Source: Clostridiales bacterium
GTDB taxonomy: Bacteria; Bacillota; Clostridia; Saccharofermentanales; Saccharofermentanaceae
Length of the DNA: 64,000 nt
Direction of reading: 5' to 3'
Assembly (NCBI GenBank): GCA_017513085.1
Contig: JAFWDK010000008.1
Span: 1-64,000, forward strand
In this document: piece by piece, positions 4,778 to 50,787 of the stretch
Layout of the letters: each line of letters opens with the position of its first letter
How positions within the stretch are numbered: position 1 is the stretch's first letter
Made by a program: the position numbers and the translations under genes
Notes under the pieces: generated by a model
Seen by the model: the letters and a program-made list of their open reading frames with translations, nothing else
Database searches by the model: none
Told to the model about the DNA's origin: nothing

Positions 4778-6429
4778 GATTCAGTCTTCTCAGCTTTTTT
4801 CGGCTCTTCCTTCTTCGTTGTCTTAGTCTTCTTTGCAGAAGACTTGCTCTTCACAGCAGGCTTTTTCGCCACAGTTTTCTTTTTGGGTGCTTTTTCAGAA
4901 GACTCTTCTTTATCCTTATTCAGATCAAGGATTTCTTCCGTAAGCGCTTTTTTCTTTTTCGGTTCTTCAGCAATAGAAATACCGGTAATGAAAGAATAGA
5001 GACCCGCATACTCTTCTGCAGAGTGCTTCCAGGAATAATCAGCTTTCATGCCTTCTTTGATCAGCTTATCCCAAACATCCTTGTTGTGACGATACAGATC
5101 GCAAGCATACTTCGTTACAAACAGGAACTCATGCGCATTGATATTCGCGAACGAGAAACCATTACCCTCACCGGTAAATTCATTGTAAGGAATGACTGTA
5201 TCACGAAGTCCGCCGGTCTCACGAACGATCGGGATCGTACCATATGTCATGGCGATCAACTGGGAAAGTCCGCATGGTTCAAACAGAGACGGCATCAGGA
5301 AGATATCCGCACCGGCATAAAGCGTATGCGCCAATCCATTATCGAAAGAGATACATGCGCACATTTTTCCGGGATTTCGTGCAGCGATATCTGCCAATGC
5401 ATGCTCATAATATGCATCACCGGTTCCGAGTACGACGATCTGCATGCCGTCGAAAAGCATCTCTTCCACAACACGAAGTAACAGATCCAGGCCTTTCTGA
5501 TCGACCAGACGAGAGATCATGGTGCAAAGCGGCGCACCCGGGTTCACTTCCAGACCCAGCTGCTCCTGAACAGACTTCTTGTTGATCGCCTTACCTGTCT
5601 TGTAGTTCTTGATCGAATACTTCGCAGGGATCATATCATCTTTACTCGGATTATACTCTTCCGCATTGATTCCATTAAGGAATCCGGAAACCTTGTAGGC
5701 ATATCTTTGCAAAGTATGATTCAATCCTTCGCCATAATAATCGGTCATGATCTCATATGCATACGTTGGCGAGACCGTCGTGACGGAATTTGAATATACG
5801 ATACCGGCCTTCATGAAGTTGACCGCGCCATCCTTAATAGAAAGCTCATCCGTGAGGTATTCGCTCGGAAGATCCAAAAGATCCTGGATGACCTCGATAC
5901 CATGGATACCCTGATACTTCAGATTATGGATCGTATATACCGTCTTGACGTCATTATGGAATCCGTACTTCTTATAGTGCGCATCCAGAAGAAGCGGCAT
6001 CATACCGGACTGCCAGTCATTGCAGTGCAAAACATCCGGTTCAAAGCCCATGAAGTCGCCCATGAAATCAAGGACGGCTCTCTGGAAGAAACAGAAACGC
6101 TCGATATCAAATACGTACTCGACATAAACCTGATCGAAATTGAAATAATACTCATTATCAACGAAGTAATATTTCACGCCATTCATCGACAGAGTGTAAA
6201 GTCCGGCATAAAGAGAACGCCAGCCCATCTTGATCATCTTCCAGCCGATGAAATCCAGATTATGTGTCTGTTTTTGTTTTACACTCTTATAGAGCGGCAT
6301 GATGACTCTGGCATCACAATGGTGATGTTGCAGTTCTACCGGGAGAGCACCCACCACATCAGCCAGACCTCCTACTTTCGCGAAAGGATAAACCTCTGAC
6401 GAAACAAACAAAACTTTAATAGTACTCAT
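4774..6429 (-). CDS. glgA: Glycogen synthase with Lys-rich C-terminal tail
   Basis: AKVGGLADV, HCNDWQ, TIHNLKYQG, MPSLFEPCGL, TGGLRDT. Confidence 0.97.
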   Translation of the reverse strand: MSTIKVLFVSSEVYPFAKVGGLADVVGALPVELQHHHCDARVIMPLYKSVKQKQTHNLDFIGWKMIKMGWRSLYAGLYTLSMNGVKYYFVDNEYYFNFDQVYVEYVFDIERFCFFQRAVLDFMGDFMGFEPDVLHCNDWQSGMMPLLLDAHYKKYGFHNDVKTVYTIHNLKYQGIHGIEVIQDLLDLPSEYLTDELSIKDGAVNFMKAGIVYSNSVTTVSPTYAYEIMTDYYGEGLNHTLQRYAYKVSGFLNGINAEEYNPSKDDMIPAKYSIKNYKTGKAINKKSVQEQLGLEVNPGAPLCTMISRLVDQKGLDLLLRVVEEMLFDGMQIVVLGTGDAYYEHALADIAARNPGKMCACISFDNGLAHTLYAGADIFLMPSLFEPCGLSQLIAMTYGTIPIVRETGGLRDTVIPYNEFTGEGNGFSFANINAHEFLFVTKYACDLYRHNKDVWDKLIKEGMKADYSWKHSAEEYAGLYSFITGISIAEEPKKKKALTEEILDLNKDKEESSEKAPKKKTVAKKPAVKSKSSAKKTKTTKKEEPKKAEKTES

Positions 6430-7538
6430 ATGATAGCTCCCTTTCCGATCACAACCGGATAATCCTTGTGACCCACAAGTTTGATACCCGGACGGACTAC
6501 AGAATTCTTATCCAGGATAACATTCTCCAGATAGCAGTTATCTGAAATATGCACATCCTGCATGATAACACAATTTTTGATCACTGTATTCTTAGAAACC
6601 GCCACACCACGGAACAGGATCGACTCAATGACCTGACCGGAAATACGGCAGCCATCGGAAACGATCGAATCGTTCACTTTACAATCATCTGAATAAAGAG
6701 TCGGCGCTTCGTCCTTAACTTTTGTAAAGATCGGCATGCCATTCCAGAACAGATCTGAACGGATCTGATTATTCAGAAGCATCATGGACGAATTGAAGTA
6801 GGACTGAACAGTATTGATACGCAATACCAATCCCTTATATTCATAAGCATGTACACGCAAAGTATCAAACTTCTTTACAAACGAATGGATGCCGACATGA
6901 TTGGTACCGCGAGCCATCATCTCCGCGATCAGATCGACAAGAAGTTCTCTTCTCAACACAATAATACCCATGCTGCTCTTAGTAAAAGAACTCTTCTCCG
7001 GATTATAAAGCAGATCTTTGACCCAGCCTCTTCTGTCAATATCCAGAATATAGTTTGGTCCGCCGAACTTCGTACCGTCACGGTTATACATAACAGAGAT
7101 GTCCGCGCCGCAAGCTATAAAGTCTTCGATAAAGTCTGTAAATGTCGTATTGAGGATCACATTGCTCGAAGCCATGATCACATACGAAGCCTTGCTGGAT
7201 CGGACAAAATCCAAAAGTCCGGCCATTTCTTCGTCACCCTGTACAGAAGTCGCCTCGGAATTAACGTACGGCGGCAGGATATGAAGGCCACCGGAATTCT
7301 TTCGGTCAAGATCCCAAGACGCGCCGGTTCCCAGATGGTCCATCAAAGACTTATACTTCGTATAGGTATGGATACCGATATTCTTAATACCGGAATTCAC
7401 CATATTGGAAAGCATATAGTCAATAATACGGTAACGTCCGCCGAAAGGAATCGCTGACAGAGCACGCGGTTTGGAAAGCTCACCAAGTGTAATCTTCTTA
7501 TTATCACCAAAGATCAATCCCATTGCATCAATAAACAT
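6426..7538 (-). CDS. glgD: Glucose-1-phosphate adenylyltransferase non-catalytic subunit
   Basis: PFGGRYRIIDYMLSNMVNSG, no GxGxRL motif, TKVKDEAPT, adjacent to glgC. Confidence 0.93.
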   Translation of the reverse strand: MFIDAMGLIFGDNKKITLGELSKPRALSAIPFGGRYRIIDYMLSNMVNSGIKNIGIHTYTKYKSLMDHLGTGASWDLDRKNSGGLHILPPYVNSEATSVQGDEEMAGLLDFVRSSKASYVIMASSNVILNTTFTDFIEDFIACGADISVMYNRDGTKFGGPNYILDIDRRGWVKDLLYNPEKSSFTKSSMGIIVLRRELLVDLIAEMMARGTNHVGIHSFVKKFDTLRVHAYEYKGLVLRINTVQSYFNSSMMLLNNQIRSDLFWNGMPIFTKVKDEAPTLYSDDCKVNDSIVSDGCRISGQVIESILFRGVAVSKNTVIKNCVIMQDVHISDNCYLENVILDKNSVVRPGIKLVGHKDYPVVIGKGAII

Positions 7539-38492: not shown

Positions 38493-40226
38493 ATGAATGC
38501 AAAGTGGCGCAAATTCTTTTCGTATTATCGTCCCTACATGAAGGGCTTCATCGCGGATATGTTTTTCGCATTAGTCGGCGCCGGAACATCCCTCGTCATT
38601 CCGCTTATCACCCGCTATATCACCGGCACCGTGCTGGAATCAGGTTTTTCTAACGCCTCCAAAACCATCCTGATCCTCTCCTGCGTCATGCTGGGACTCC
38701 TTGCTCTGGAATTCTGCTGCAATTACTTTATCGCCTATGTCGGACACATGGTCGGCGCGAAGATGGAATACGATCTTCGCAATGAGCTTTTCACGCATTA
38801 CCAGAAGCTCTCCTTCCGCTTTTATGACAATCAGAAAGTCGGAAGCCTCATGTCCCGAGTGACCAACGACCTTTTTGAGATCACTGAACTATACCACCAC
38901 GGACCGGAAGACCTTTTGATCTCGATCATAAAGCTTATCGGATCTTTTGTGATCCTTTGTATGATCAACCTCCGTCTGGCCATGGTTGCTTTTCTGCCGG
39001 TCCCCTTTATGGTCGTTTTCGCCACGATCCTGAACCGCAAGATGAAGCGAACGTTCAAGAAAAACCGCGAGCGCATCGCCGAGATCAATACCCGCATGGA
39101 AGACAGTCTTTCCGGAATACGTGTCGTCAAATCGTTTGCCGGTGAAGACACCGAGATCCATAAGTTTACGGAAGGCAATGATCTGTTTCTCCAGAGCAAG
39201 CGTGACAACTACCGCTATATGGCTATATACCATGCGGTGCTCTGGTGCGTCACCGGCTTGATCTCTGTCGCCGTCATTGCCGTAGGCTCCATCATGATCG
39301 GGCACGATTCCCTGACACTTCAAGATCTCATCGCATTCCTGCTCTACGTAAATAATTACACCGAGCCGATCCGCAAGCTCGTCAACTTCACCGAACAGTT
39401 TCAAAACGGCATGTCCGGTTTCGAGCGTTTCTATGAGATGATCTGCATCGAACCTGATATCGAGGATGCCAAGGACGCCGTAGAGCTTCAAACTGTTAAG
39501 GGCAATATCGATTTCCAGGATGTGTCCTTCTCCTATGGAGACAATCCCACCTCCGAATCGCAAGTGCTTTCGCATCTTGACCTTCATATTGACGCCGGTG
39601 AATATGTTGCGCTTGTCGGACATTCCGGCGTCGGCAAGACCACGATCTGCAGCCTGATCCCCCGCTTCTACGAACCGACCCACGGAAAGATCCTGATCGA
39701 TGGAACTCCGATCGACCGGTATACCCAGCGTTCTTTGCGCAGAAAGATCGGTATCGTTCAGCAGGATGTCTATCTTTTTTCAGGCACTGTTCTGGAAAAC
39801 ATCCGCTACGGACGGCCCGGCGCTTCTCTGGAAGAAGTCGTGGAAGCCGCAAAGAGAGCGAATGCTCATGATTTTATCATGGAGCTTCCGAATGGTTACG
39901 ACACGGATATCGGCCAACGCGGAGTCAAGCTCTCCGGCGGCCAGAAGCAGCGTCTTTCCATCGCCCGTGTATTTTTGAAGGATCCGCCGATCCTTATCTT
40001 CGACGAAGCCACTTCTTCTTTGGATAACGAAAGCGAAAAAGTCATTCAGGAATCCATGGAAGAACTGGCCAAAGATCGGACCACGCTGGTCATCGCACAT
40101 CGTCTGACTACGATTCAAAATGCCGGCCGGATCCTTGTACTATCCGAAAACGGAATTGAAGAAAGCGGCACGCACCAGGAATTGATTGAGAAAAACGGCG
40201 CTTATGCCAAGCTGTACAAGACATGA
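38493..40226 (+). CDS. ABC exporter, fused permease/ATPase
   Basis: HHGPED, GHSGVGKT, LSGGQKQR, IFDEATS, IAHRL. Confidence 0.95.
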   Translation: MNAKWRKFFSYYRPYMKGFIADMFFALVGAGTSLVIPLITRYITGTVLESGFSNASKTILILSCVMLGLLALEFCCNYFIAYVGHMVGAKMEYDLRNELFTHYQKLSFRFYDNQKVGSLMSRVTNDLFEITELYHHGPEDLLISIIKLIGSFVILCMINLRLAMVAFLPVPFMVVFATILNRKMKRTFKKNRERIAEINTRMEDSLSGIRVVKSFAGEDTEIHKFTEGNDLFLQSKRDNYRYMAIYHAVLWCVTGLISVAVIAVGSIMIGHDSLTLQDLIAFLLYVNNYTEPIRKLVNFTEQFQNGMSGFERFYEMICIEPDIEDAKDAVELQTVKGNIDFQDVSFSYGDNPTSESQVLSHLDLHIDAGEYVALVGHSGVGKTTICSLIPRFYEPTHGKILIDGTPIDRYTQRSLRRKIGIVQQDVYLFSGTVLENIRYGRPGASLEEVVEAAKRANAHDFIMELPNGYDTDIGQRGVKLSGGQKQRLSIARVFLKDPPILIFDEATSSLDNESEKVIQESMEELAKDRTTLVIAHRLTTIQNAGRILVLSENGIEESGTHQELIEKNGAYAKLYKT

Positions 40227-40366
40227 CCTGAAACTTCTTCGGAAGCGGCAGATCTTCACTTGCATCTCAAAAAAATCGAACATTTCCACGACATTTTCCA
40301 TTAAAAACTTATAGCCATGCACTTTTCTTTCCCGTATAATATGTATAGAGCTTAAAAACTTAGGGG

Positions 40367-41668
40367 ATGAAAAATATGAAGAATATCGCACTTAAGCGCT
40401 TTTTGCCGCTTATCTTTGTTTTTTGCATGCTATTTGCATCATTGGGTCATCTTTGTCTTGCCGACGATTCCATCGCGGATGGATCCGGTTATCAGACCGA
40501 GGCTTCGAAGGTCGAGAGTTTCGTTACCAGAATGTACGAGATCACTTTGAACAGAAAACCGGACAAAGACGGATTAGCATACTGGTGCAAGCAGGTCACG
40601 GATAGAAAGATCACAGCAGGCGGCCTTGCTTTTCAGTTTATTTTCGGAAAAGAATTTCAAAACAGGATCTCCAAGGAGAAAATGACCAGCACCCAGTATA
40701 TTACCTGCCACTACAAGCTTTTCATGGGGCGTGATCCCGAAAAGAGCGGCCTCGAGTACTGGGTAAATTACATGGGTCAGAAGTGGAATACAGACGCCAA
40801 GAAGAAGGCTTTGTTTGTCGGCTTCGTCAATTCCAAAGAGTTCCGCAAGATCTGCCAGGACTATGGCATGCTCCAGGGCTATTACGATCCGAATCACACG
40901 CCTGATCAGAATACAAGCGTAGCTCTTTTTGTAGATCGCATGTATCAGATCATTCTCGGAAGAAAGAGCGAGAGCGATGGACTTTTCTTCTGGACAGAGC
41001 AATTACTCACCGGTAAGATCGACGGCGCTTCCCTCGGACTCCAGTTTGCTTTCAGCAAAGAATTCAAGAACCTGAAAGTCAGCAACAAAGAATTCGTTTC
41101 CCGTCTCTATCGTGCTTTCATGGGCAGAGAACCGGATCAGGCCGGCATGGATTACTGGCTCTCCCTGATCGAGGTCGGCGCGCCACGTGAAGCGATCTTC
41201 AATGGTTTTATCCATTCCGCTGAGTTCACCAAAATCTGCAAGACGTACGGTATTACCAGAGGTTCTCTGAACCTTCCTACTACTGAGGTCTATGCCCGTA
41301 TCGTAGCCATCAATAAGCTCCGCGAAGAAAATGGTGCTCCGAAACTTAAGACCACTGATCTGATGCAGAAGTGGGCAGACACTCGTGTTCTTGAGATCTC
41401 CACCTACTTCTCTCACTACAGAAAAGACGGCTCTAAGTATGATAAAGTCGGCCGCAACCTCGGCATCAAGTTCGGCGCCAGCGCAGAAAACATCGCAGCC
41501 GGTTCCGGCGGATGCATGGATAATCTGGATCAGGCACTCAAAGCCTGGATGAATTCCGAGGGTCACCGTAAAAATCTTCTCAACCCGATTTATAATCGCG
41601 CTGCTCTGGGACGTTATGTTGCTCCGGACGGAACCGTATACTGGGCATTGGTACTTGCACAGTGCTGA
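40367..41668 (+). CDS. Secreted protein: N-terminal DUF4214 repeats plus C-terminal CAP/SCP domain
   Basis: FVTRMYEITLNRKPD..YW repeats; FSHYR, AENIAAG, WMNSEGHRKNLL. Confidence 0.88.
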   Translation: MKNMKNIALKRFLPLIFVFCMLFASLGHLCLADDSIADGSGYQTEASKVESFVTRMYEITLNRKPDKDGLAYWCKQVTDRKITAGGLAFQFIFGKEFQNRISKEKMTSTQYITCHYKLFMGRDPEKSGLEYWVNYMGQKWNTDAKKKALFVGFVNSKEFRKICQDYGMLQGYYDPNHTPDQNTSVALFVDRMYQIILGRKSESDGLFFWTEQLLTGKIDGASLGLQFAFSKEFKNLKVSNKEFVSRLYRAFMGREPDQAGMDYWLSLIEVGAPREAIFNGFIHSAEFTKICKTYGITRGSLNLPTTEVYARIVAINKLREENGAPKLKTTDLMQKWADTRVLEISTYFSHYRKDGSKYDKVGRNLGIKFGASAENIAAGSGGCMDNLDQALKAWMNSEGHRKNLLNPIYNRAALGRYVAPDGTVYWALVLAQC

Positions 41669-41700
41669 TCAGAACTATTCCATCTTATAGCCCGAGATGA

Positions 41701-42180
41701 TCAATCCGCAACGATATCCGCAAACTGTCCGGATACCGCTTTGCAAAGATCATCCGGCTTGAGATGGATCTGCGTTCCCAGCATTCCTCCGCTTACGATA
41801 ATGGTATCAAAAAGTTGCGCCGTTTCATGAATAATTGTCGGATACTTTTTCTTCATTCCGATAGAAGTCACGCCGCCACGGATATACCCCGTTACAGCCT
41901 GAATATCCTTGACATGCAGCATCTCCAGAGACTTCTCCCCGACGACTCTGGCCGCTTTCTTCATATCCACCTCTTCTGCGATTGGAAGAACAAAAACAAA
42001 ATAGTTCTTCGACTTGCCCTGCATGACTAAAGTCTTGAAAGAGGATTCATACGGCTGTCCCAGCATATCCGCGATATGTACGCCATCAATAAACTCGTCA
42101 CACTCGTAATACACCGCTTCGTAAGGTATCTTCTCCTTATCGAGGATTCTCATCGCATTTGTCTTATTTTCTTTTTTCAC
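41701..42180 (-). CDS. ybaK: Cys-tRNA(Pro) deacylase YbaK/EbsC
   Basis: KTNAMRILD, FKTLV, TGYIRGGVTSIG, VSGG. Confidence 0.93.
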   Translation of the reverse strand: MKKENKTNAMRILDKEKIPYEAVYYECDEFIDGVHIADMLGQPYESSFKTLVMQGKSKNYFVFVLPIAEEVDMKKAARVVGEKSLEMLHVKDIQAVTGYIRGGVTSIGMKKKYPTIIHETAQLFDTIIVSGGMLGTQIHLKPDDLCKAVSGQFADIVAD

Positions 42181-42204
42181 GTCAGTACCACCTTTTCAAA
42201 ACAA

Positions 42205-43569
42205 TCAGCCGAAGCAATGCTTCTGCAGATACTCACTTATATTCGCGGAAAGAGGCTGTGTCGGCACAGATCCCAACGTCTGAACATTGGACAGGACAAT
42301 GATGATGTCCTCCGTCTCCCGGTTTACGAACACATTCGTGTTATATCCCAGCGTCATGCCGGAATGCTCAATACACGGTCCAATCACATAAAAACCGTAT
42401 CCGTATCCAAAAGCACCGCCGTCGAAGATCTTGTCCCAGCTTTCTTTCTTAAGCAGTTTTCCATCCAGAACAGCATATTCCCACTTCAGAAGGCCTTCCG
42501 CCGTTCCCGTCATCACGCCGACAGCATAGCTGATGCTTGGATCCTGTGAAGGAAAATCAAAATTCCAGAACAAAAGCGATGTTCTTCCCTTAGAAGTCAG
42601 ATGATCGATATCCGGATAAAGCTCCGTCAGATCAAGCGGTTCAAGGATGTTCTTTCTGATGTACTCATCATACTTCATACCGGTCAATCTCTCGATAATA
42701 ATACCGAGGAAATAGTAATTTGTATTGCAATACTTAAACTGCGTACCGGGAGTAAACTCCAGATCAAAATACGACATCTGCTCGATCAGCCAATCACCGG
42801 TGATCGGTTTGGTTACCACCGCACGGACCGTCTGTTCCAGAGCATCCAGCTTCGTAAAATCGATCTGGGAAAAATCCGTCATGGAAAAGCCCAGCGTCCC
42901 GGTCTCCAGATAATCCGAAATGCCGGAAGTCATATTCAAAAGCTGATGTATCGTGATCTCCTTGGCATGTGAATATTCCGGAATATACTTATCAAGCGTA
43001 TCCTCCGGCGAGATCAATCCCTGCTCCACGAGCTGCATGATTGCAACAGCCGTAAACTGTTTCGTGATAGAGCCCATCTCAAAAACCGTATCCATCTTAT
43101 TCGGGATCCCCTGCTCGCGATCCGCCAATCCGGACTCTTTCGTCCATACTACTTCCCGGTTCTGCGAAACGAGCGCTACGCCGTCAAACGTGATCCCGTT
43201 GAAATACTTTTCTGCCGTTCCTTTGTCAAAAGCACTGTCAGTATTCCCCGGTGCTGTGGTAGTTTCCGTGGTGGTTTCTTCGGATGTCAGCTCCGTGGTC
43301 TCCGATGTGCTTTCTTCCGTGGTGGTCTCTTCCGAAGTCGTCTCCTCGGTCGTTTCCTCCGTCGTATTCTCGGTGGTAGTCGCCTCTGTCGTTTCTGAAG
43401 TGGAAGTCTCTTCAGATGAAGATTCTTCAGTCGTAACCGATGTCTCTTCCGAAGTTTCACGTTCAGTCGTACGGCGCGTGGAACGCGTCTCTTCCTCATT
43501 CTTACTGCAAGATGCCATCAGAATGCTGAGAGAAAGGATTCCCGCCAGGATCTTCACTGATTTTTTCAT
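42205..43569 (-). CDS. Lipoprotein serine hydrolase (beta-lactamase class C / PBP fold) with Thr/Glu linker
   Basis: Lipobox LMASC; SITK (SxxK); YCN (YxN); HSG. Confidence 0.9.
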   Translation of the reverse strand: MKKSVKILAGILSLSILMASCSKNEEETRSTRRTTERETSEETSVTTEESSSEETSTSETTEATTTENTTEETTEETTSEETTTEESTSETTELTSEETTTETTTAPGNTDSAFDKGTAEKYFNGITFDGVALVSQNREVVWTKESGLADREQGIPNKMDTVFEMGSITKQFTAVAIMQLVEQGLISPEDTLDKYIPEYSHAKEITIHQLLNMTSGISDYLETGTLGFSMTDFSQIDFTKLDALEQTVRAVVTKPITGDWLIEQMSYFDLEFTPGTQFKYCNTNYYFLGIIIERLTGMKYDEYIRKNILEPLDLTELYPDIDHLTSKGRTSLLFWNFDFPSQDPSISYAVGVMTGTAEGLLKWEYAVLDGKLLKKESWDKIFDGGAFGYGYGFYVIGPCIEHSGMTLGYNTNVFVNRETEDIIIVLSNVQTLGSVPTQPLSANISEYLQKHCFG

Positions 43570-43631
43570 GCTTTACTCCTCTATGCAAAAGGACCTCTTT
43601 ACGAGGTCCGTAATCGATATCAAGTCTTTTC

Positions 43632-44069
43632 TTACGCTTCAACTTCTTCGATCTTTTTATAGAAACGGTTCTTTTTAAGCGCCTTATAGTCACTCTTTTT
43701 CATTCCGCTTTGAATCGTAATACTCTCACCGGAATTCTTATCCTCAAGGATAAGATCATATGTCTTGGTCGCTGCGTGATGAACTCCACGAGGAACCAGA
43801 TTTGTAGTAACAGGAGTCGAATCTTTAATGATACGCTTCGCTTCTTTCTTAGCGTCCTTGATGCACTTATCACCGTTGAAGCAAACCGGACAGAAATGGT
43901 AATAGTCCGCGCCCAGCGGGATCAACGGAATAAAGTCAAGATGTCCCCACTTATTAAACTTTACATATGTCTCCTGGTAAGCCTTGTGGCAGAAAGAACA
44001 CTCTTTCACCTCACCTTTAGGTCCATATACTTTTTTAAATGATCTTACACCATAATAAACTACGCCCAT
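43632..44069 (-). CDS. Small Zn-ribbon hypothetical protein
   Basis: CSFC..FIPLIPLG..CPVC; GGAGG RBS. Confidence 0.7.
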   Translation of the reverse strand: MGVVYYGVRSFKKVYGPKGEVKECSFCHKAYQETYVKFNKWGHLDFIPLIPLGADYYHFCPVCFNGDKCIKDAKKEAKRIIKDSTPVTTNLVPRGVHHAATKTYDLILEDKNSGESITIQSGMKKSDYKALKKNRFYKKIEEVEA

Positions 44070-44198
44070 CTTTGTACGCCTCCTGTGCTTTTCTAAGCTT
44101 CACTCTAAACGTGTTTATTCTCGCATAGATATAAGAAAAAAACAATGTAATCATATTCACAAATCTTTCCTTATCAAACAGGCTACATTAAGAAAGAA

Positions 44199-44207
44199 TG
44201 TTATAAT
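44199..44207 (+). promoter_or_regulatory. Extended -10 promoter of the kinase-nuclease/HPRT-like operon
   Basis: TG-T-TATAAT followed by an AAAGGAGG RBS. Confidence 0.6.
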
Positions 44208-44236
44208 AGAAGAAGAAATCAAAGGAGGTCTGATGC

Positions 44237-45199
44237 ATGCCGATCATTACCATTTCCCGTCAGATGGGCAGCCTCGGCGACGAAGTCGCACAAGCTCTTT
44301 CCAGTAAGCTTGGCTGGGAATTGATCACAAGAGACCTTCTTATGGAGCGGTTCTTTCCGGACAGCAATCCGGAGCAAAGGCAAAGTCTTGCAGAGAGCGC
44401 GAAATTCTATTTATCCGAATACAAAGACGGTAAGACTTTCCGAGAAGTACTGGAGTCCTCTCTTCTTGATCTGGCGCAGCATCAATCTGCAGTACTGCTC
44501 GGATTCGGTTCCCAGATCTTCTTTTCAGACTATGACAGCGCCATCAACGTCCGCATCGTCGCGCCGAATGACGTCCGTCTCAGCAGGATACAAAGACAGT
44601 TTCACATGACCGAACAAGCCGCGCAAGCGCTTTTGGAATCAACGGACAGAAAACACAAGCGTTTTGTCTCGCACGTATTCTCTGCTGATTCTTCCGATGT
44701 GTCACTTTATCACCTTGTCCTGAATACTGCCTATCTTTCCGTAGACGAATGTGTGGCAGCGATCCTTGCTACCCACAACGAGCATGCGCTCCGTGTCCGT
44801 ATCAAGGATGAAACCAAAAGAGAGGGCGCGTACGATCACCAGAAAGATCTTCCTGTTTTTAAGAATCCTTCTGAAGCCGAATTTGCGCGCATTCTCGACA
44901 TGTACCATATTGACTGGAAATATGAACCGAAGACCTTCCCGGTAGAGTGGGACAGCGAAGGCAATGTAACCCTGGCGTTCAGTCCGGATTTCTATCTGAC
45001 AAGATTTGACACCTATCTGGAACTGACCACCATGGATCAGAAATATGTTACGAAGAAAAACAAAAAGCTGAAGAAAGTCCGCGAACTCTATCCCGGCACA
45101 CACATTAAGATCGTTTACAAGAAAGATTTTCTGGAATTGGTGGAACGTCTGAAGAGTTTTGACGCACCGCCTGCCGCATCCGACGATAACGAAAAGTAA
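44237..45199 (+). CDS. Cytidylate-kinase-like (Cytidylate_kin2) domain fused to a C-terminal PD-(D/E)XK-like domain
   Basis: ITISRQMGSLG, YHLVLNT; then SEAEFARILD..YEPKTF..PDFYL..YLELTT. Confidence 0.8.
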   Translation: MPIITISRQMGSLGDEVAQALSSKLGWELITRDLLMERFFPDSNPEQRQSLAESAKFYLSEYKDGKTFREVLESSLLDLAQHQSAVLLGFGSQIFFSDYDSAINVRIVAPNDVRLSRIQRQFHMTEQAAQALLESTDRKHKRFVSHVFSADSSDVSLYHLVLNTAYLSVDECVAAILATHNEHALRVRIKDETKREGAYDHQKDLPVFKNPSEAEFARILDMYHIDWKYEPKTFPVEWDSEGNVTLAFSPDFYLTRFDTYLELTTMDQKYVTKKNKKLKKVRELYPGTHIKIVYKKDFLELVERLKSFDAPPAASDDNEK

Positions 45200-45211
45200 G
45201 AGAGGACTACT

Positions 45212-45742
45212 ATGGAGCAGATCACATATAAGAAGATCCTTTATACCCAGGAACAGCTCGCCAGGCGTATCGCCGAACTGGGCAAGACCATCACTTCCGA
45301 TTATCAGGGTGAAGAACTCGTTCTTCTCGGTGTACTGAAAGGTTCTCTCTACTTCTTCACGGACCTGACCCGCGCGATCGATCTTCCTATCGAACTGGAC
45401 ATGCTGGCTGTCGGTAATATCCCTGATACGACCAGCACGACCGGAATCGTACGGATCACCAAAGATGTCGATATCAACATTACCGGCAAACATGTCATTG
45501 TAGTGGAGGACATCATCCGTACCGGGCTGACTACCGCTTACCTGCTCCAGACGCTGGAAGCCAGAAGACCGGCGTCTTTGGAAGTCTGCACATTGCTTTA
45601 TAATCCGGATAGACAACTCATTGATCTTCCTGTCAAATATTTCGGCTTCGAGATCGACCGGAGCTGGTTGATCGGATACGGCATGGATGCTTCGGAAAAA
45701 GGAAGGAATCTCCCCTTCATTGCCGAACTGGAACACAAATAA
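45212..45742 (+). CDS. Hypoxanthine phosphoribosyltransferase-like protein with divergent active site
   Basis: GVLKGS, VIVVEDIIRTGLT, IGYGMD, RNLPFI. Confidence 0.85.
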   Translation: MEQITYKKILYTQEQLARRIAELGKTITSDYQGEELVLLGVLKGSLYFFTDLTRAIDLPIELDMLAVGNIPDTTSTTGIVRITKDVDINITGKHVIVVEDIIRTGLTTAYLLQTLEARRPASLEVCTLLYNPDRQLIDLPVKYFGFEIDRSWLIGYGMDASEKGRNLPFIAELEHK

Positions 45743-45760
45743 ATCTATTTCCCTAATAGC

Positions 45761-45791
45761 AAAAGGTGGTCTCATAATGAAACCACCTTTT
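45761..45791. terminator. Bidirectional terminator shared by the HPRT-like operon and the large ncRNA
   Basis: AAAAGGTGGTCTCAT-A-ATGAAACCACCTTTT. Confidence 0.85.
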
Positions 45792-45816
45792 ATATAAAGC
45801 CTGAGGACAAATTAAA

Positions 45817-46407
45817 AGCTCCAGCGAACCAATCTCACTTCCAATTCCTACGGCCACCCTTTATTATCTGCGAACCTTCAAGATCCTGCTCAACCTGTCT
45901 TCGCGGAATTACTCACCACATGAAGCTGTGCCTTTCCAACCGACCCGAACCCGAAATGTTGTCGTCTCCGAAACCACCCTTTCCATTACCTCTGCTGCAT
46001 CTGCCTGAACTGATTGCCCCATGCTACCAATCCGGTCTCCGATCCAGTTTTTGCAACTTACTCAGTTATGGTCCGTCTCCTACCATCTCTTCGTAATCTC
46101 GACTCCCCGCTTGCTGATTCCCATCATCATCGGTTCATCTAAATCAAGGTTCCAACCTGACCCGCGACTTGTGTCCGCCCTCGCGTACCGTCAATCGCTG
46201 TCCGCTCTCCACTGCTTGCTACTATGGCTCAAACGGTTCCGGTTTTTGCTGTTCCTATTCGATCTCACCGGATCGCCTTCAAAAACGCATCCACCATCGT
46301 TTCCTGACCACTCTCTGGTCTTTCTGTTTTTTTCAACCTCGCCTTGTGTATTCATCAGTGGCGGTTCTCCGTTTGGGAAATGGTGTTAACTCGTATTCCC
46401 TGGAGCT
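45817..46407 (-). ncRNA. Large (~591 nt) structured non-coding RNA candidate (ROOL-sized; family unconfirmed)
   Basis: Own promoter with predicted +1 at 46407; 5' AGCUCCAG pairs with 3' CUGGAGCU followed by UUU; many nested hairpins; purine-rich; no same-strand ORF of 60 aa or more. Confidence 0.78.
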
Positions 46408-46413
46408 AATTTA

Positions 46414-46441
46414 AGTATAGCACGCAATAAACGTATGTCAA
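46414..46441 (-). promoter_or_regulatory. Sigma-A promoter driving the ncRNA
   Basis: TTGACA-16nt-TATACT with extended TGn. Confidence 0.82.
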
Positions 46442-46742
46442 CACCTTCCACCGCGAAATGCGCAAACTTTTTTATTTCGTTGTGCAACATGCACAAAACG
46501 ATACGTGCTGTTTTTGAAAAGCACCCTTGCATCTTTCAAACTGCGCTACCATCACGGTTTGCGGCTTTCCCTCCATCTTATCTTACCGGTTCACAGCAAG
46601 TGCTTCTGTATCCGTACTACAAAAAAAGTGCGACGATTGTTTACTTTTCGGTCATAATTCCCCACTGTTTCTAACAATACTGTCACTTGGTTTTTCTCAA
46701 AAATCCGTTATAATTGTTTTAGTTTAGCATTGGGAGTGTTGT

Positions 46743-47309
46743 ATGAAAGTCAAGCTTTTAAAACTCAATCGTGGTCTGATCCTTCTGATCATCGCAATCA
46801 TCGGCGTGCTGATCTACTTAACTGCCGAGACAATTGATGCCAACAAGAAAAAACAAGAAGTTCGCACTCTTGCTTCTGAGATCATCACGAAAACACAGGA
46901 GTGTATCGTAATCGTTAGCGACATTGACGACGTCATGAATTCACGCACTTTTATCTATCACAATAATTCTGACTTTAATGAAAACAAAGAGAATAATTAT
47001 TCCAATATTGACATACTGAAACCCTATCTTTACCAGGACGATCGTTTGTACCAGGAAATTTCAGAACTTGGCAATGATCTTTCTACAAGCGCATTTGTAA
47101 ATGATAATGTGATCATTAAGAGTCTGGTTTCCAGAATTCCCTACGAAACCAGCGTCATGTATTACAACAACACTGCCAAAGTTACGATACGCGTGAATAA
47201 TGAATATATATCCGCTGATAATACCCAGAATAGTATGACGTCTACCGACGAGCTCGGCTTTGAGTATATAGACGACAGATGGCAACTGGTCAGTTATGAG
47301 ATTTATTGA
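46743..47309 (+). CDS. Membrane-anchored hypothetical protein, first gene of an ABC-2 operon
   Basis: N-terminal TM, AT-rich; GGGAG RBS and upstream TATAAT. Confidence 0.75.
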   Translation: MKVKLLKLNRGLILLIIAIIGVLIYLTAETIDANKKKQEVRTLASEIITKTQECIVIVSDIDDVMNSRTFIYHNNSDFNENKENNYSNIDILKPYLYQDDRLYQEISELGNDLSTSAFVNDNVIIKSLVSRIPYETSVMYYNNTAKVTIRVNNEYISADNTQNSMTSTDELGFEYIDDRWQLVSYEIY

Positions 47310-47349
47310 TTCCGATCCAATATTGTCCTAACCTTTCAGGAGAGAATAC

Positions 47350-48282
47350 ATGAGTGATAATCCAGCATTAAGCATACAGAATCTTACTAAGACATTCGGA
47401 AAGAAAGTGGCTGTCGACAATGTTTCTTTCGATGTTTATCCCGGCGAAGTTTTCGGTTTTTTGGGACCGAACGGCGCCGGAAAAACCACGATCATCAAGA
47501 GCGTCATGGGCTTTATCCAACCGGATAAAGGAACGATCGTTATAAATGGTCATAATGCAAAAAAAGAATATGAAAAAGCCATGTCTTCCATCGGTGGCAT
47601 TGTGGAGAATCCGGAAATGTATTCGAATCTCTCTGCATACCTGAATCTCAAGATGTACGCCAAACTTCACGATAACATTTCAAAAGAACGTATCGACGAA
47701 GTCCTGGAACTGGTTGGTCTGAAAGAGCGTGCAAAAGAACCTGTCAAGAAATACTCTCTCGGCATGAAACAGCGAATCGGTCTCGCACAGGCCTTGCTTC
47801 ACAAACCAAGGATGCTTATCCTGGACGAACCTACCAACGGACTCGATCCGGCAGGCATCCATCAGCTTCGTGATATTTTGAAGAAATATGCTCACGAAGA
47901 TGGAGCCGCGGTCATGGTTTCCAGTCATCTTCTTTCTGAGATGCAGATGATGTGCGACCGTATCGGTATCATCAATCATGGAAAACTGATCCGGATCTGT
48001 TCTATCGAAGAGTTAACAGATCAGAGCACCTCGTCTTCCAAATATCGCATCAAGACTTCTGATCCGAAAAAAGCTTCCGTATTTCTATCCGAAACCTACA
48101 GCTACAAAGTCAGCAATCTTACGGAAAGCTGTTTTGATATCGAAGTGGACGAATCCGAAATCAACGAATGTGTCCGCAAAATGGTGGAATCCGGTTCGGA
48201 CATTTTAGGCGTGCAGAAAGTGGAGACCTCACTTGAAGACGCTTTCTTACAGATCACAGGAGGAGGAATTGAAATTGAATAA
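47350..48282 (+). CDS. ABC-2 type ATP-binding protein (BcrA/YhcH-like)
   Basis: GPNGAGKTT, YSLGMKQR, LDEPTNGLDP, SSHLL. Confidence 0.95.
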   Translation: MSDNPALSIQNLTKTFGKKVAVDNVSFDVYPGEVFGFLGPNGAGKTTIIKSVMGFIQPDKGTIVINGHNAKKEYEKAMSSIGGIVENPEMYSNLSAYLNLKMYAKLHDNISKERIDEVLELVGLKERAKEPVKKYSLGMKQRIGLAQALLHKPRMLILDEPTNGLDPAGIHQLRDILKKYAHEDGAAVMVSSHLLSEMQMMCDRIGIINHGKLIRICSIEELTDQSTSSSKYRIKTSDPKKASVFLSETYSYKVSNLTESCFDIEVDESEINECVRKMVESGSDILGVQKVETSLEDAFLQITGGGIEIE

Positions 48283-49849
48283 GATTGCTGCTCTTTATTC
48301 CAACGAAATGATCAAGATCTTCCACAGAGTTTCCGTGTGGATCGTAATGGTAATCATGCTTTCTATCGCGATACTGGCTCCGATCGCATTTAAAGTTTCG
48401 GTCGGAGATTATAACGATCAGTATGACGACTTTGAATCCTATTTATCCAAAGAAGAATTTACCAGAAGAAGAGATTCATTGGCACAGATTCTGAAAGATA
48501 CCAACGAGTTCGTCAAGCATTCCAATGTTCAGTACACTACCCAAAATGAAACACACGAAGTATTCTCGACATGGCTGGAATGTGACGAGGATAAGGCTAC
48601 AGACTACAGTTCCTATATATGTTATAACAACCTCATCAGCACCTATAACTTTGAATCCAACAGATTCAATACAAGCTGGTTGACGATAAACGCCTTACAG
48701 TCTTATGTGCTGGCTCACCATGATATCTGCTATTTGAATCTGACTCCTTTTTCCGAGCGTGATGAAGAATGGTATAAGATGTATACATTATACAGTCAGG
48801 CATTTGATCTGTACTCCGAAGCGCTTTTCTCAAATAACCTGAACGCTTATTATTCCGGCGAAGTTTTAATGGATACGGTCGGCAGATCCCGTTTCGAAAT
48901 CTCTTCACTGCAAAGACTGATGGAGATCGACCCGGATGCTTCTTTCCCCCCGGATCAAGCAAACTGTTTGCTTGATCTTCTTAACGAGATCGACAAATGT
49001 GAACAGGACCTCCATAGCAACCTGGCCAGAAGCCAAAGCACTCTTCCGCGAGTTTTGACGCAAACGGAAAAAAGTCGACTGCGTGACAGGCTTTCTATCC
49101 TAAACTACCATTTCGATCATGGGAATTATTTCACAGAAGAAGTCACCATCGCTCACCAGATCAACAATCTGGCGATAACATTCGGTCGCTTTGCTCTGAT
49201 CGTACTCCTGGTCCTCATTGCAGGCACCAGCGTTTCCCAGGAATTAGCCACCGGCTCGATCAAATCCTTGATCATTGCCCCCGTACGCAGATGGAAGATC
49301 TTCCTGGCTAAACTTCTCTCTATCATCTCCTGGTGTATTGTAGGTTCGATCCTTCTGGTAGGTGCTTCGACTTTGACAACGATGTTCCTTTACAGGAATA
49401 TCTCTCTGCCGGAATACATTTATGTTTCCGGCGGAATGATCCATCGCATTCCCTATCTTATCTATATGATCATGTCATTCTTCGTAAGCAGCCTTTCCCT
49501 CTTTGTCTATCTTATCCTTGCATTCATGATTTCTTGCATTTCCAAGAATACCGGTGTTTCCGTTGCCGTATCGAGTGCACTGATCCTTTGCTCGAATCTT
49601 CCATCCATCCTGATCGAGCTGGGCGGTCGTAAGAGATGGATCGACTTCCTGCCCTCCATAAACATGGATATCAAAAATCTCGTCTTCCCCTTCTCGAATT
49701 TGATGAACGGATTGAATAACAACGATTTTTTCATTACAGAAAATACGATAAACAATTCGCTCTCGTTCTCTCTGATCTATGTGGCGGTGCTGCTCCTCAT
49801 TATGCTCACTATCGCATACGATGCATTCACCAAGAGGGACATCCAGTAA
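48275..49849 (+). CDS. ABC-2 permease with large extracellular domain
   Basis: TTG start after GGAGG; NEMIKI, VSQELATGSIKSLIIAPVRRWKIFLAK, FTKRDI. Confidence 0.88.
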   Translation: MNKIAALYSNEMIKIFHRVSVWIVMVIMLSIAILAPIAFKVSVGDYNDQYDDFESYLSKEEFTRRRDSLAQILKDTNEFVKHSNVQYTTQNETHEVFSTWLECDEDKATDYSSYICYNNLISTYNFESNRFNTSWLTINALQSYVLAHHDICYLNLTPFSERDEEWYKMYTLYSQAFDLYSEALFSNNLNAYYSGEVLMDTVGRSRFEISSLQRLMEIDPDASFPPDQANCLLDLLNEIDKCEQDLHSNLARSQSTLPRVLTQTEKSRLRDRLSILNYHFDHGNYFTEEVTIAHQINNLAITFGRFALIVLLVLIAGTSVSQELATGSIKSLIIAPVRRWKIFLAKLLSIISWCIVGSILLVGASTLTTMFLYRNISLPEYIYVSGGMIHRIPYLIYMIMSFFVSSLSLFVYLILAFMISCISKNTGVSVAVSSALILCSNLPSILIELGGRKRWIDFLPSINMDIKNLVFPFSNLMNGLNNNDFFITENTINNSLSFSLIYVAVLLLIMLTIAYDAFTKRDIQ

Positions 49850-49860
49850 ACCTGAACTGA

Positions 49861-50787
49861 CTATTCTTTCGGACAGGGTCGGAAATTCCGGCCCTGTTCG
49901 ATTTTCCGCAAATGAAACTCCTGCGTGATACGATTTCTGACCATTCTCTTATTCGCCACCCATAATGGCGCGATCAGATGCTTCTTGTCTCCGTCCCCGG
50001 TCATCCGGTAAATAACGATGTCTTCACGAATGTTCTCGACCACGGTACATAAGAAATCGATATACTCATCCATGTCCATCAACGGGAATGGCTTCTGTTC
50101 AAAAAGCACTGCCAGTTCCGTATCGCGCAGAACATTCAGATTCGCGATCTTAATGCCCTGAATCGGAAGATTCGAGCAATACCGTATCGTCTCCAGCATC
50201 ATATCTTTCGTCTCGACCGGAAAATCCAGTATTACATGTACGATCGTTTCCAGATGACCGGATAACTTAGAAAGGCGCTCCACCGCTTGTTCAAACGCGG
50301 AAAGATCATATCCGCGATGAAACCATACTGCGGTCTCTTCATGGATCGTCTGAAGTCCCAGCTCGATCCAGACATACGTCTTCTGCGCCAGATCTTCCAG
50401 GATCCTGTACATCTTCTCGCTGATACTGTCCGGTCTGGTCGCGATCGACAGGCCCACTACTTCAGGATCCGAGAGCGCCGCCTCAAATTTTTCTTTCAGC
50501 GTCTCCTCATCCCCGTAAGTATTTGTGAAATTCTGAAAATACGCGATATATTTGTGGCTCTTGCACTTCTGTTCCACTCTCGTTTTCGCAAGGGCAAGCT
50601 GGGCCGGAACATCTAACGTCCGGTCCGCTGCGAACTCACCGGAACCGCTGCCGCTGCAGAATATACAGCCGCCCCTCCCCTTCGTACCGTCCCGGTTCGG
50701 GCAGGTGCAACCCGCATCCAGCGCGATCCGGTAAACTTTCTCTCCGAAGATCTCCTTATAGTGTTCGCTGGCACTGCGATAACTCAT
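49861..50787 (-). CDS. TIGR01212/YhcC-family radical SAM protein
   Basis: CPNRDGTKGRGGCIFC, YFQNFTNTY, TRPD, ELGLQT. Confidence 0.92.
   Translation of the reverse strand: MSYRSASEHYKEIFGEKVYRIALDAGCTCPNRDGTKGRGGCIFCSGSGSGEFAADRTLDVPAQLALAKTRVEQKCKSHKYIAYFQNFTNTYGDEETLKEKFEAALSDPEVVGLSIATRPDSISEKMYRILEDLAQKTYVWIELGLQTIHEETAVWFHRGYDLSAFEQAVERLSKLSGHLETIVHVILDFPVETKDMMLETIRYCSNLPIQGIKIANLNVLRDTELAVLFEQKPFPLMDMDEYIDFLCTVVENIREDIVIYRMTGDGDKKHLIAPLWVANKRMVRNRITQEFHLRKIEQGRNFRPCPKE

Follow-up and report, generated by a model that had tools for sequence, protein, structure and literature searches.

Introduction

Hypoxanthine phosphoribosyltransferase (HPRT) is a major target of (p)ppGpp in Firmicutes, and PyrR, which has the fold of a uracil phosphoribosyltransferase, binds RNA. 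PurR of Bacillus subtilis is described in PMC8789054 as a regulator of the phosphoribosyltransferase (PRT) fold that binds 5-phosphoribosyl pyrophosphate (PRPP) and (p)ppGpp, and it sets a precedent for a PRT-fold ligand sensor tied to nucleic-acid binding. This study deals with a gene pair in a stretch of 64,000 nucleotides (nt) from a Clostridiales bacterium (assembly GCA_017513085.1, contig JAFWDK010000008.1, positions 1 to 64,000), referred to as the window. The first gene encodes a protein of 320 amino acids (aa) with an N-terminal domain of the Cytidylate_kin2 (CK2) type and a C-terminal domain resembling T7 endonuclease I, here called the C domain. The second encodes a paralogue of HPRT, here called HPRT2. 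The pair and the two domains, taken from open reading frames (ORFs) and domain searches, are located as follows.

44237..45199, + strand: two-domain gene (CK2-like plus endonuclease-I-like), 320 aa; ORF
45212..45742, + strand: HPRT paralogue HPRT2, 176 aa; ORF
44243..44731, + strand: CK2 (P-loop NMP-kinase-like) domain with a degenerate P-loop, residues 3-165; PF13189
44849..45163, + strand: PD-(D/E)XK, T7-endonuclease-I-like domain, residues 205-309; profile against PDB sequences, VIA-align, BFVD and PHROGs

Among described systems, PurR stands nearest in logic to the function that we propose, as an analogy and not by membership: PurR carries a winged helix, whereas the partner here is an endonuclease fold that in most lineages sits on a separate polypeptide. 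An HPRT and a nucleoside monophosphate (NMP) kinase fold are also joined in Zobellia galactanivorans, for which PMC7326950 reports a natural HGPRT/adenylate kinase fusion with both activities. The kinase part of the Zobellia protein is a true adenylate kinase, and a nuclease-like domain is absent from it; in the window, the kinase-like part is of the CK2 type and belongs to the partner protein.

T7 endonuclease I (PF05367; 1m0d, 2pfj and 3cae) shares with the C domain the motif series E...YE...PDF.LP...E.(K/T) and a basic helix that follows it. In place of the catalytic K67 of the phage enzyme, the C domain has a Thr that is invariant in 92 of 92 distinct domains. It is, moreover, cellular and not phage-borne, coupled to HPRT, and below the threshold of PF05367.

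Coupling of the C domain with HPRT

Genomic coupling of the C domain with a separate HPRT lineage, by adjacency or by fusion, is practically obligate. In a class-level sample, the full-length protein was encoded in 12 of 299 genomes, including the source genome, and HPRT lay directly 3' in 11 of 11 foreign loci. The C domain alone was detected in at least 574 species genomes by a species-level scan with a 10-row alignment of the domain. Judged by record titles, its carriers belong to Clostridia, Syntrophomonadaceae, Actinomycetota, Acidobacteriota, Chloroflexota, Atribacterota and Deltaproteobacteria. Cultured carriers include Proteiniclasticum ruminis ML2 (L111), Thermomicrobium roseum DSM 5159 (L153) and Ruminococcaceae bacterium YRB3002 (P0279). 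The loci of the class sample and those of 80 of the at least 574 species matches together gave 91 loci. A same-strand HPRT was found in 86 of them, at most 600 nt downstream of the C domain in 79 (≤150 nt in 60, 151-600 nt in 19), 2.1-2.2 kb downstream in two, fused in frame in one and upstream on the same strand in four. HPRT was not found in the remaining five loci, in all of which the relevant flank was cut at 15-573 nt. The pair was likewise present in 20 of 20 further loci of the family and 9 of 9 loci of the genus.

At least six fused forms with three architectures were identified: CK2-C-PRTase (P0126 and P0139), GAF-C-PRTase (P0259 and L110) and C-PRTase (P0195 and the 333-aa RefSeq 'hpt' of Thermomicrobium roseum DSM 5159). 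The C domain and HPRT thus form a constant core, and the part N-terminal to it varies (CK2-like, GAF, other or none). An earlier reading of the window, the original prediction, had placed the two genes in one operon and had asked whether the pairing is conserved; it holds across phyla, and the fusions reinforce it. Since the pairing is strict and confirmed by fusions, it very likely reflects a real molecular partnership. The contrary explanation, that the adjacency is due to chance or to inherited gene order with no functional link, deserves next to no credence, given the agreement in strand over several phyla, the fused forms and the apparent descent of the linked HPRTs as a lineage of their own (see below).

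No third gene shared this conservation: the next commonest ORF cluster occurred in at most 15 of the 91 loci, in a clustering confounded by shadow ORFs, and homologues of TilS or FtsH were found in none of them. A search for longer homologues revealed no new architectures. Nearly all of the 120 matches listed were of the CK2-C type (PF13189, 262-356 aa), and one was a 229-aa protein without a Pfam match. No description of the pairing of C domain and HPRT was found in the literature, supplementary files being outside the scope of that search.

In the T. roseum hpt (WP_012643103.1; L153 4950-5951; NC_011961.1 368419-369420), the endonuclease-I-like domain takes up the N-terminal third, with a tblastn match that begins some 50 nt behind the start of the gene. 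The gene is located on the 918-kb second replicon and is convergent with mutM.

The C domain

The residues discussed below are encoded at the following positions.

44873-44875, + strand: codon of E213
44987-44989, + strand: codon of D251
45020-45022, + strand: codon of E262
45026-45028, + strand: codon of T264
45056-45058, + strand: codon of K274
45065-45067, + strand: codon of K277

The sequence pattern S212-E213 ... Y229-E230-P231 ... P250-D251-F252-Y253 ... E262-L-T264 had been recognized as T7-endonuclease-I-like, with Thr for the catalytic Lys. This assignment was borne out by a profile of 43 C domains, which retrieved T7 endonuclease I and nothing else among 177,635 PDB sequences (3cae, 1.7e-4; 2pfj, 0.01; 1m0d, 0.028). 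In the profile alignment, ETK of the T7 enzyme lies over ELT, so that the catalytic K67 is opposite Thr264. Residues E20, D55 and E65 of T7 endonuclease I align with E213, D251 and E262.

Fourteen positions showed no variation among 92 distinct C domains, which came from several phyla: E213, Y229, E230, P231, F234, P250, D251, F252, L254, E262, T264, K274, K277 and P286. The PD-(D/E)XK catalytic signature, which consists of Glu on helix 1, PD on strand 2 and (D/E)xK on strand 3, is accordingly incomplete, with E213, P250-D251 and E262 invariant and the Lys replaced by Thr264 throughout. As Thr264 is itself invariant, it is a defining feature of the family and no sign of decay. K274 and K277 on the next helix might stand in for the missing catalytic Lys.

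An AlphaFold2 (AF2) model of residues 201-320 had a mean predicted local distance difference test (pLDDT) value of 88.9. When it was compared by VIA-align, 20 chains reached Z≥5, led by 9g6k (Z 8.3), Bax1 (6p4w, Z 7.5, 24% identity), I-Bth0305I (7.1), Vsr (6.5), TnsA (6.4) and VRR-NUC (6.0); most of these top rows are, judging by the entry titles, PD-(D/E)XK or RAP domains. The Z values fall where the tool calls a shared arrangement common, so that the fold call is carried by the nuclease-rich list and the sequence profile. The RAP domains of mitoribosomal/FASTK proteins (9g6k and 9gek), which are eukaryotic RNA binders, superposed with a root-mean-square deviation (rmsd) of 4.1 over 93 residues. 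For the Bax1 nuclease domain (DUF790; 6p4w, 6p4o and 8gy8), the rmsd was 3.0 over 83 residues, and the DUF790 hidden Markov model (HMM) gave a weak match to the 320-aa protein (E 6.4e-4). In contrast to Bax1, the protein has no XPB-like helicase partner.

Phage proteins pointed in the same direction. Models named 'Endonuclease I' in BFVD matched the C domain with E 1.9e-6 and TMq 0.64, among 44 matches at E≤1e-3. In PHROGs, the matches were a family of unknown function (1.4e-8), an endonuclease family (1.2e-6) and a Holliday-junction-resolvase family (6.2e-6). In these two collections, the matches ranged from 1e-8 to 1e-5. A Foldseek search of the C domain against the PDB gave nothing below E 1e-3, the best match being Bax1 at 1.0e-3. 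T7 endonuclease I scored poorly in that search (E 0.04-0.2, TM 0.31, rmsd >20 Å), probably because its chains are domain-swapped. Taken together, the PDB profile, VIA-align, PHROGs and BFVD support the PD-(D/E)XK fold that the domain had been expected to have, and the C domain is predicted to adopt its alpha-beta-beta-beta-alpha-beta core. A role as a mere dimerization scaffold was considered and dropped, as the invariant acidic triad is hard to reconcile with it.

Existing family models do not cover the domain. PF05367 gave no match to the 320-aa protein at E≤0.1 and matched 2 of 39 relatives (E≥7.8e-4), Pfam and NCBIfam contain no model for the C domain, and the nearest ESM Atlas clusters are unannotated. 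It is the most conserved part of the protein, with 82-95% identity within the genus compared to 69-91% for the N domain, and its identity across phyla is roughly 50-60%. By these sequence comparisons, the family to which it serves as conserved core is widespread and lacks annotation.

Stand-alone C-domain ORFs of several Chloroflexota loci (L096, L100, L101, L107, L112 and L084) carry long low-complexity C-terminal tails. In these GC-rich lineages the tails contain segments rich in Arg, such as RRRRGRRRRR runs; the ORFs were delimited by a stop codon at either end.

The linked HPRT and its purine site

HPRT2 resembles housekeeping HPRT: it scored 164.6 bits on the TIGR01203 equivalog model (cut-off 150) and was 54% identical to Thermoanaerobacter HGPRT (2geb, E 1.9e-54) over 167 aligned residues, as counted from the alignment. 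Its residues were compared with those of 2geb and 1r3u, and it differs from the canonical enzymes at three sites.

45518-45520, + strand: R103 in the PRPP loop, VEDIIRTG in HPRT2 for canonical VEDIIDSG; alignment
45602-45604, + strand: N131 in the strand before the hood, LYNP in HPRT2 for canonical LDKP; alignment
Residue 70: I70 in loop II, Ile in HPRT2 for canonical Tyr; alignment

The canonical hpt of the source genome is located on another contig (C15) in the order tilS-hpt-ftsH; it scored 217.4 bits on TIGR01203 and has all three canonical residues. A second HPRT copy was also found in 12 of 15 other carrier genomes checked. In a quick and unrooted maximum-likelihood tree, which included about 14 near-duplicate rows from loci fetched twice, 15 of 16 unlinked HPRTs fell on one side of a branch, and the label linked/unlinked required 2 changes compared to 15.2 in shuffles. 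The linked HPRTs thus appear to be a lineage apart from the housekeeping tilS-hpt-ftsH copy. In a Syntrophomonadaceae locus (L051), a canonical-type HPRT (D/D/K; 6131-6670, - strand) lies about 1.3 kb from the linked HPRT2, which means that the two lineages coexist side by side.

In 6-oxopurine PRTases, an Asp contacts N7 of the purine and a Lys contacts O6, according to Table 2 of PMC2228302. The position of the O6-contacting Lys was occupied by N in 35, K in 22, R in 19 and other residues in 12 of 88 sequences from C-domain loci, and by K in 15 of 15 unlinked HPRTs. At the position of the N7-contacting Asp, the same 88 sequences had D in 53, R in 24, G in 7, N in 3 and a gap in 1. R at 103 together with N at 131 is conserved in most loci of the Clostridia clade (L014-L053). 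No residue separated linked from unlinked HPRTs at strict thresholds; looser ones returned position 131 and a few others. The residues of the PRPP site, with its PRPP/5-phosphate loop (E-D ... T-G) and a PPi-binding Arg, are kept in the linked copies, namely E99 in 87, D100 in 86, T104 in 85, G105 in 87, D159 in 85 and R165 in 86 of the 88.

By these alignments, the purine site of HPRT2 in the source genome is remodelled. With the PRPP-site residues kept and the N7-contacting Asp and the O6-contacting Lys replaced, HPRT2 probably differs in function from ordinary hypoxanthine/guanine salvage enzymes. Human PRTFDC1 (2jbh), a low-activity HPRT paralogue in which the N7-contacting Asp is replaced, was among the PDB matches of HPRT2. 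Matches to PyrR models reached at best 30.8 bits (cut-off 140), and a PurR model was not among the matches listed. We also considered that HPRT2 reads 5'-phosphorylated RNA ends or damaged DNA bases, and dropped both options as the E-D pair of HPRT binds the ribose hydroxyls.

The same residues can be explained by a metabolic enzyme complex. HPRT2 would then be a working PRTase, acting on 6-oxopurines in the lineages with D/K and on another base in those with R/N. The C domain would be a regulatory or catalytic subunit acting on a small phosphoester (pyrophosphate, PRPP or a nucleotide), or would set the oligomeric state, and the CK2-like domain would phosphorylate or sense the NMP product. 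This is in line with the score above the equivalog cut-off, with the retention of all PRPP-site residues and with two genomes (G300 and G301) in which HPRT2 is the sole HPRT found; the conservation of R103 and N131 in the Clostridia clade suggests new specificity over decay. The Zobellia fusion shows that both activities can occur naturally in one protein, and a constant core preceded by sensor domains that vary recalls regulated enzymes. It is harder to accommodate that the nearest sequence relatives of the C domain are all junction or DNA endonucleases, and no PD-(D/E)XK enzyme is known to hydrolyse small molecules. In addition, the fused family shows no conservation of the P-loop in its N domain, and the Walker Lys is absent across the CK2 family, which makes kinase activity doubtful. 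We regard a metabolic complex as somewhat unlikely.

The N-terminal domain

The N-terminal part had been described as CK2-like, which PF13189 confirmed with a match over residues 3-165 (E 2.3e-30, 106.5 bits, cut-off 28) that covers profile positions 1-175 of 176. The AF2 model of the 320-aa protein had a pLDDT of 89.1, and two members of the CK2 family of uncharacterized function, 3hdt and 3fdi, superposed on the N domain (Foldseek E 5.4e-13 and 2.5e-12, TMt 0.87-0.88). By HMM and by fold, the N domain is therefore a clear member of this family.

The motif SRQMGSLGDE without a Walker-A Lys, pointed out in the original prediction, is present. It does not set the protein apart, as the Lys is also absent from 9 of 9 aligned stand-alone CK2 paralogues and its lack is thus a family trait. 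The idea of a special pseudokinase marked by the missing Lys was consequently dropped. What distinguishes the N domain from stand-alone CK2 proteins is its fusion to an endonuclease-like domain and a less conserved glycine-rich loop: among the fused family, conservation of at least 90% was found only at T5, G91, R114 and Y158, the glycine-rich loop remaining below this value. Full-length relatives of the 320-aa protein numbered 1044 at E≤1e-3. We read the N domain as a ligand-binding or structural module, and not as a proven kinase.

Two stand-alone CK2 paralogues, L033 (G102:C2) and L034 (G131:C48), have the glycine-rich loops GSLGD and GSDGD, which are nearer to the loop of the fused protein than the usual GSGG is. 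Paralogues of this type may be the donor lineage of the N domain.

Distribution

The C domain was found in 106 of 120 genomes of the family and in all 8 genera, always with one match per genome, and in 73 of the 84 high-quality genomes. A tblastn search of 50,697 phage records with the C domain gave no match. Among 72,556 plasmid records there was one, on the 918-kb non-mobilizable megaplasmid of T. roseum. In PADLOC-DB 2.0 (2023), the sole match was HEAT_CxxC_PD-DEXK, a local one over 35 residues (E 0.0018-0.0077, 13.5-15.6 bits), and HPRT2 had no match in that database. The neighbourhoods of the 91 loci contained no recurring defence or mobile genes.

These data bear on a defence or toxin-antitoxin system, in which a nucleotide-sensing domain would release a nuclease toxin and the HPRT-like protein would serve as sensor or antitoxin. 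A sensor combined with a nuclease is an architecture of many defence systems, the protein is patchy at class level (12 of 299 genomes), the operon has been lost in some close relatives, and there is the marginal HEAT_CxxC_PD-DEXK match, though it reflects only the shared nuclease motif. The single-copy presence throughout the family, the absence from phage records and the marginal nature of the PADLOC match argue against defence, as do the lack of recurring defence or mobile neighbours and a conservation of the C domain that is far higher than is typical of defence genes. Defence, which the original prediction had offered next to regulation, is hence disfavoured, and we consider it very unlikely. 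The distribution matches a chromosomal function that is passed on vertically and can be dispensed with under some conditions, and not a mobile defence system.

Two loci of the same genus, L174 (G318:C12:31500-37500) and L175 (G310:C54:4200-10200), have the gene order YbaK, beta-lactamase-like gene, Zn-ribbon gene, non-coding RNA (ncRNA, see below) and ABC ATPase. Here the Zn-ribbon gene is followed by the RNA with no operon of CK2-C gene and HPRT2 in between; these genomes, 96% and 94% complete, are natural knock-outs.

Gene organization and the convergent RNA

The following signals and the neighbouring RNA were located around the pair.

44199..44207, + strand: extended -10 promoter-like box TGTTATAAT, 30 nt 5' of the start codon; sequence inspection
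44222..44229, + strand: Shine-Dalgarno-like ribosome-binding site AAAGGAGG; sequence inspection
45761..45791, no strand assigned: terminator-like hairpin with T-runs on both strands, common to the operon and the convergent ncRNA; folding
45807..46333, - strand: abundant ncRNA of about 520-600 nt, not shown to belong to the operon unit; metatranscriptome contigs
46441-46414, - strand: promoter-like TTGACA-16-TATACT of the ncRNA; sequence

As had been noted before, the HPRT2 gene starts 12 nt behind the 320-aa gene, in agreement with the ORF coordinates. A scan for consensus two-hexamer promoters listed none on the + strand 5' of the gene at 44237, a good -35 element being absent. The hairpin folds with -16 kcal/mol (z -4.2), and none of 200 shuffled sequences folded as well. 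One promoter and one terminator for the pair are plausible from these elements. Both genes were covered at low depth by metatranscriptome contigs from two studies, and their junction was bridged by two contigs (X3 record 10, 45111-45380, and X4 record 16, 45059-45232), which cannot prove a single transcript; equally, the lack of contig cover for parts of the operon in some runs proves nothing. An Rfam scan of 40000-50000 at gathering thresholds found nothing, and there was no riboswitch 5' of the operon.

The convergent ncRNA was represented by contigs spanning 45807, 45815 or 45833 to 46326 or 46333 in four metatranscriptome runs of two studies. Its contig depth was 228-350 compared to 2.5-4.7 for the operon (X1 and X3), depth being a rough guide. 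An E-value scan of 45600-46900 against Rfam gave only two matches to terminator-like small RNAs (E 0.06-0.13), and five homologous ncRNA loci gave nothing at E≤0.1. By BLAST, the RNA is conserved in 23 of 23 genomes of the genus. In other genera of the family it was detected as three collinear blocks (model positions ~1-113, ~225-284 and ~551-636) with a profile of the genus copies, and its length, which differs by genus, is about 300-650 nt. In 7 of 8 genera (g1, part of g2, g3, g189, g190, g191 and g192) it lies 44-160 nt past the HPRT2 stop codon on the opposite strand; a query derived from g2 contributed two further adjacent cases. Weak collinear matches were seen outside the family in L015, L035 and L039.

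The pair could thus be a dedicated partner of this RNA, as a processing, protection or ribonucleoprotein subunit. Besides the conserved adjacency and the matches outside the family, contig depth is far greater for the RNA than for the operon, and an RNA-binding RAP domain heads the structural matches of the C domain. In L155-L162, none of the other neighbours of the window (ZnR, beta-lactamase-like, YbaK, d188 and ABC) was detected, with about 100-170 nt 5' of the N-C gene covered. However, G318 and G310 retain the RNA between the same flanking genes without the operon, and RNA and C-domain gene are on separate contigs in G368, G399 and G391, so the RNA is an independent gene. The pair is also present in phyla in which similarity search, an insensitive method, revealed no RNA of this kind, and adjacency within one family may be plain inherited gene order. 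We judge a dedicated RNA partnership to be quite unlikely. The original prediction had reported no evidence of a link to the RNA. This has to be qualified by the convergent adjacency in 7 of 8 genera and stands as far as the RNA persists without the operon; in the same way, the co-occurrence of pair and RNA is syntenic in those genera and broken in G318 and G310. A functional link is possible, with synteny as its support.

Upstream of the pair, 42205-43569 (- strand) encodes a predicted lipoprotein of 454 aa that looks beta-lactamase/transpeptidase-like by sequence inspection. It has a Thr/Glu/Ser-rich low-complexity linker of about 100 residues behind the signal peptide. Divergent from it, 43632-44069 encodes a Zn-ribbon protein of 145 aa with a weak match to PF17032.

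Proposed function

We propose that the pair forms a complex, gated by nucleotide ligands, which binds or cleaves nucleic acid, and we put the probability of this reading at roughly 40%. The C domain and HPRT2 would associate physically, and PRPP, a purine NMP or (p)ppGpp would bind to HPRT2 as its 5-phosphoribosyl ligand. The C domain would be the output that binds, and probably cleaves, nucleic acid, a role proposed from the invariant, presumably metal-binding Glu/Asp/Glu set, the invariant Thr in place of Lys and the basic helix with K274 and K277. The CK2-like domain with its degenerate P-loop would add a second nucleotide input, and the variable N-terminal domains of other members would be extra inputs. 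In this way the unit would make the binding or cutting of structured DNA or RNA depend on the purine or alarmone pool, as a chromosomal, vertically inherited housekeeping or stress function and not as anti-phage defence. The sensor-effector module for nucleotide pools suggested at the outset is a reasonable description, and it fits variable N domains in front of a constant core of C domain and HPRT.

Several observations weigh against a ligand-gated complex of this kind. The catalytic Lys of (D/E)xK is missing family-wide, which makes phosphodiester hydrolysis doubtful; the C domain may not hydrolyse at all. The domain is also near neutral (median net charge 0, median isoelectric point 7.6), which is undecisive for nucleic-acid binding. 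A predicted complex of HPRT2 with the C domain reached an ipSAE of 0.45 compared to 0.01 for the best control, with runs agreeing in at least 59% of contacts and a partner pLDDT of at least 73. Of 80 solved complexes, 58 attained the ipSAE mark, as did 2 of 110 mismatched pairs; only 7 of these solved complexes, but both mismatched pairs, did so with values ≤0.60. The prediction gives weak support and no interface. With respect to HPRT2, roughly one in four sequences of C-domain loci retains both canonical purine-site residues. The linked copy is the sole HPRT found in 3 of 15 genomes (G300, G301 and G013, the last 83% complete); in these genomes it probably functions in salvage, and a metabolic role accounts for this at least equally well. 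The separation of the linked lineage depends on a tree with the weaknesses named above. Finally, the operon is absent from G318 and G310 and is consequently dispensable.

A more far-reaching version of the proposal is that an endonuclease-I-like domain with its invariant Glu/Asp/Glu/Thr site and a dedicated HPRT paralogue form an ancient, unrecognized complex in which a PRT fold senses ligands such as PRPP or (p)ppGpp and directly gates the cutting or binding of structured nucleic acid, and that the target in this family of Clostridia may be the adjacent RNA. We hold this version to be unlikely; if true, it would be a new link from purine or alarmone status to RNA or DNA processing in at least six phyla.

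Significance

HPRT is among the best-studied enzymes of nucleotide metabolism, yet a paralogue lineage with an apparently remodelled purine pocket has been overlooked, its members being annotated plainly as 'hpt' or as 'cytidylate kinase family protein'. The pair is probably an undescribed two-protein unit whose association is old, as it extends over several phyla, and strict. These results also correct how fused 'hpt' genes like the one in T. roseum are annotated. Should nucleotide ligands gate a nuclease or nucleic-acid binder through this partnership, purine and stringent-response signalling would gain a new output; a metabolic partnership would be a new regulated PRTase, possibly with a new substrate. 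Either way, a conserved domain outside Pfam and NCBIfam receives a concrete, testable function.

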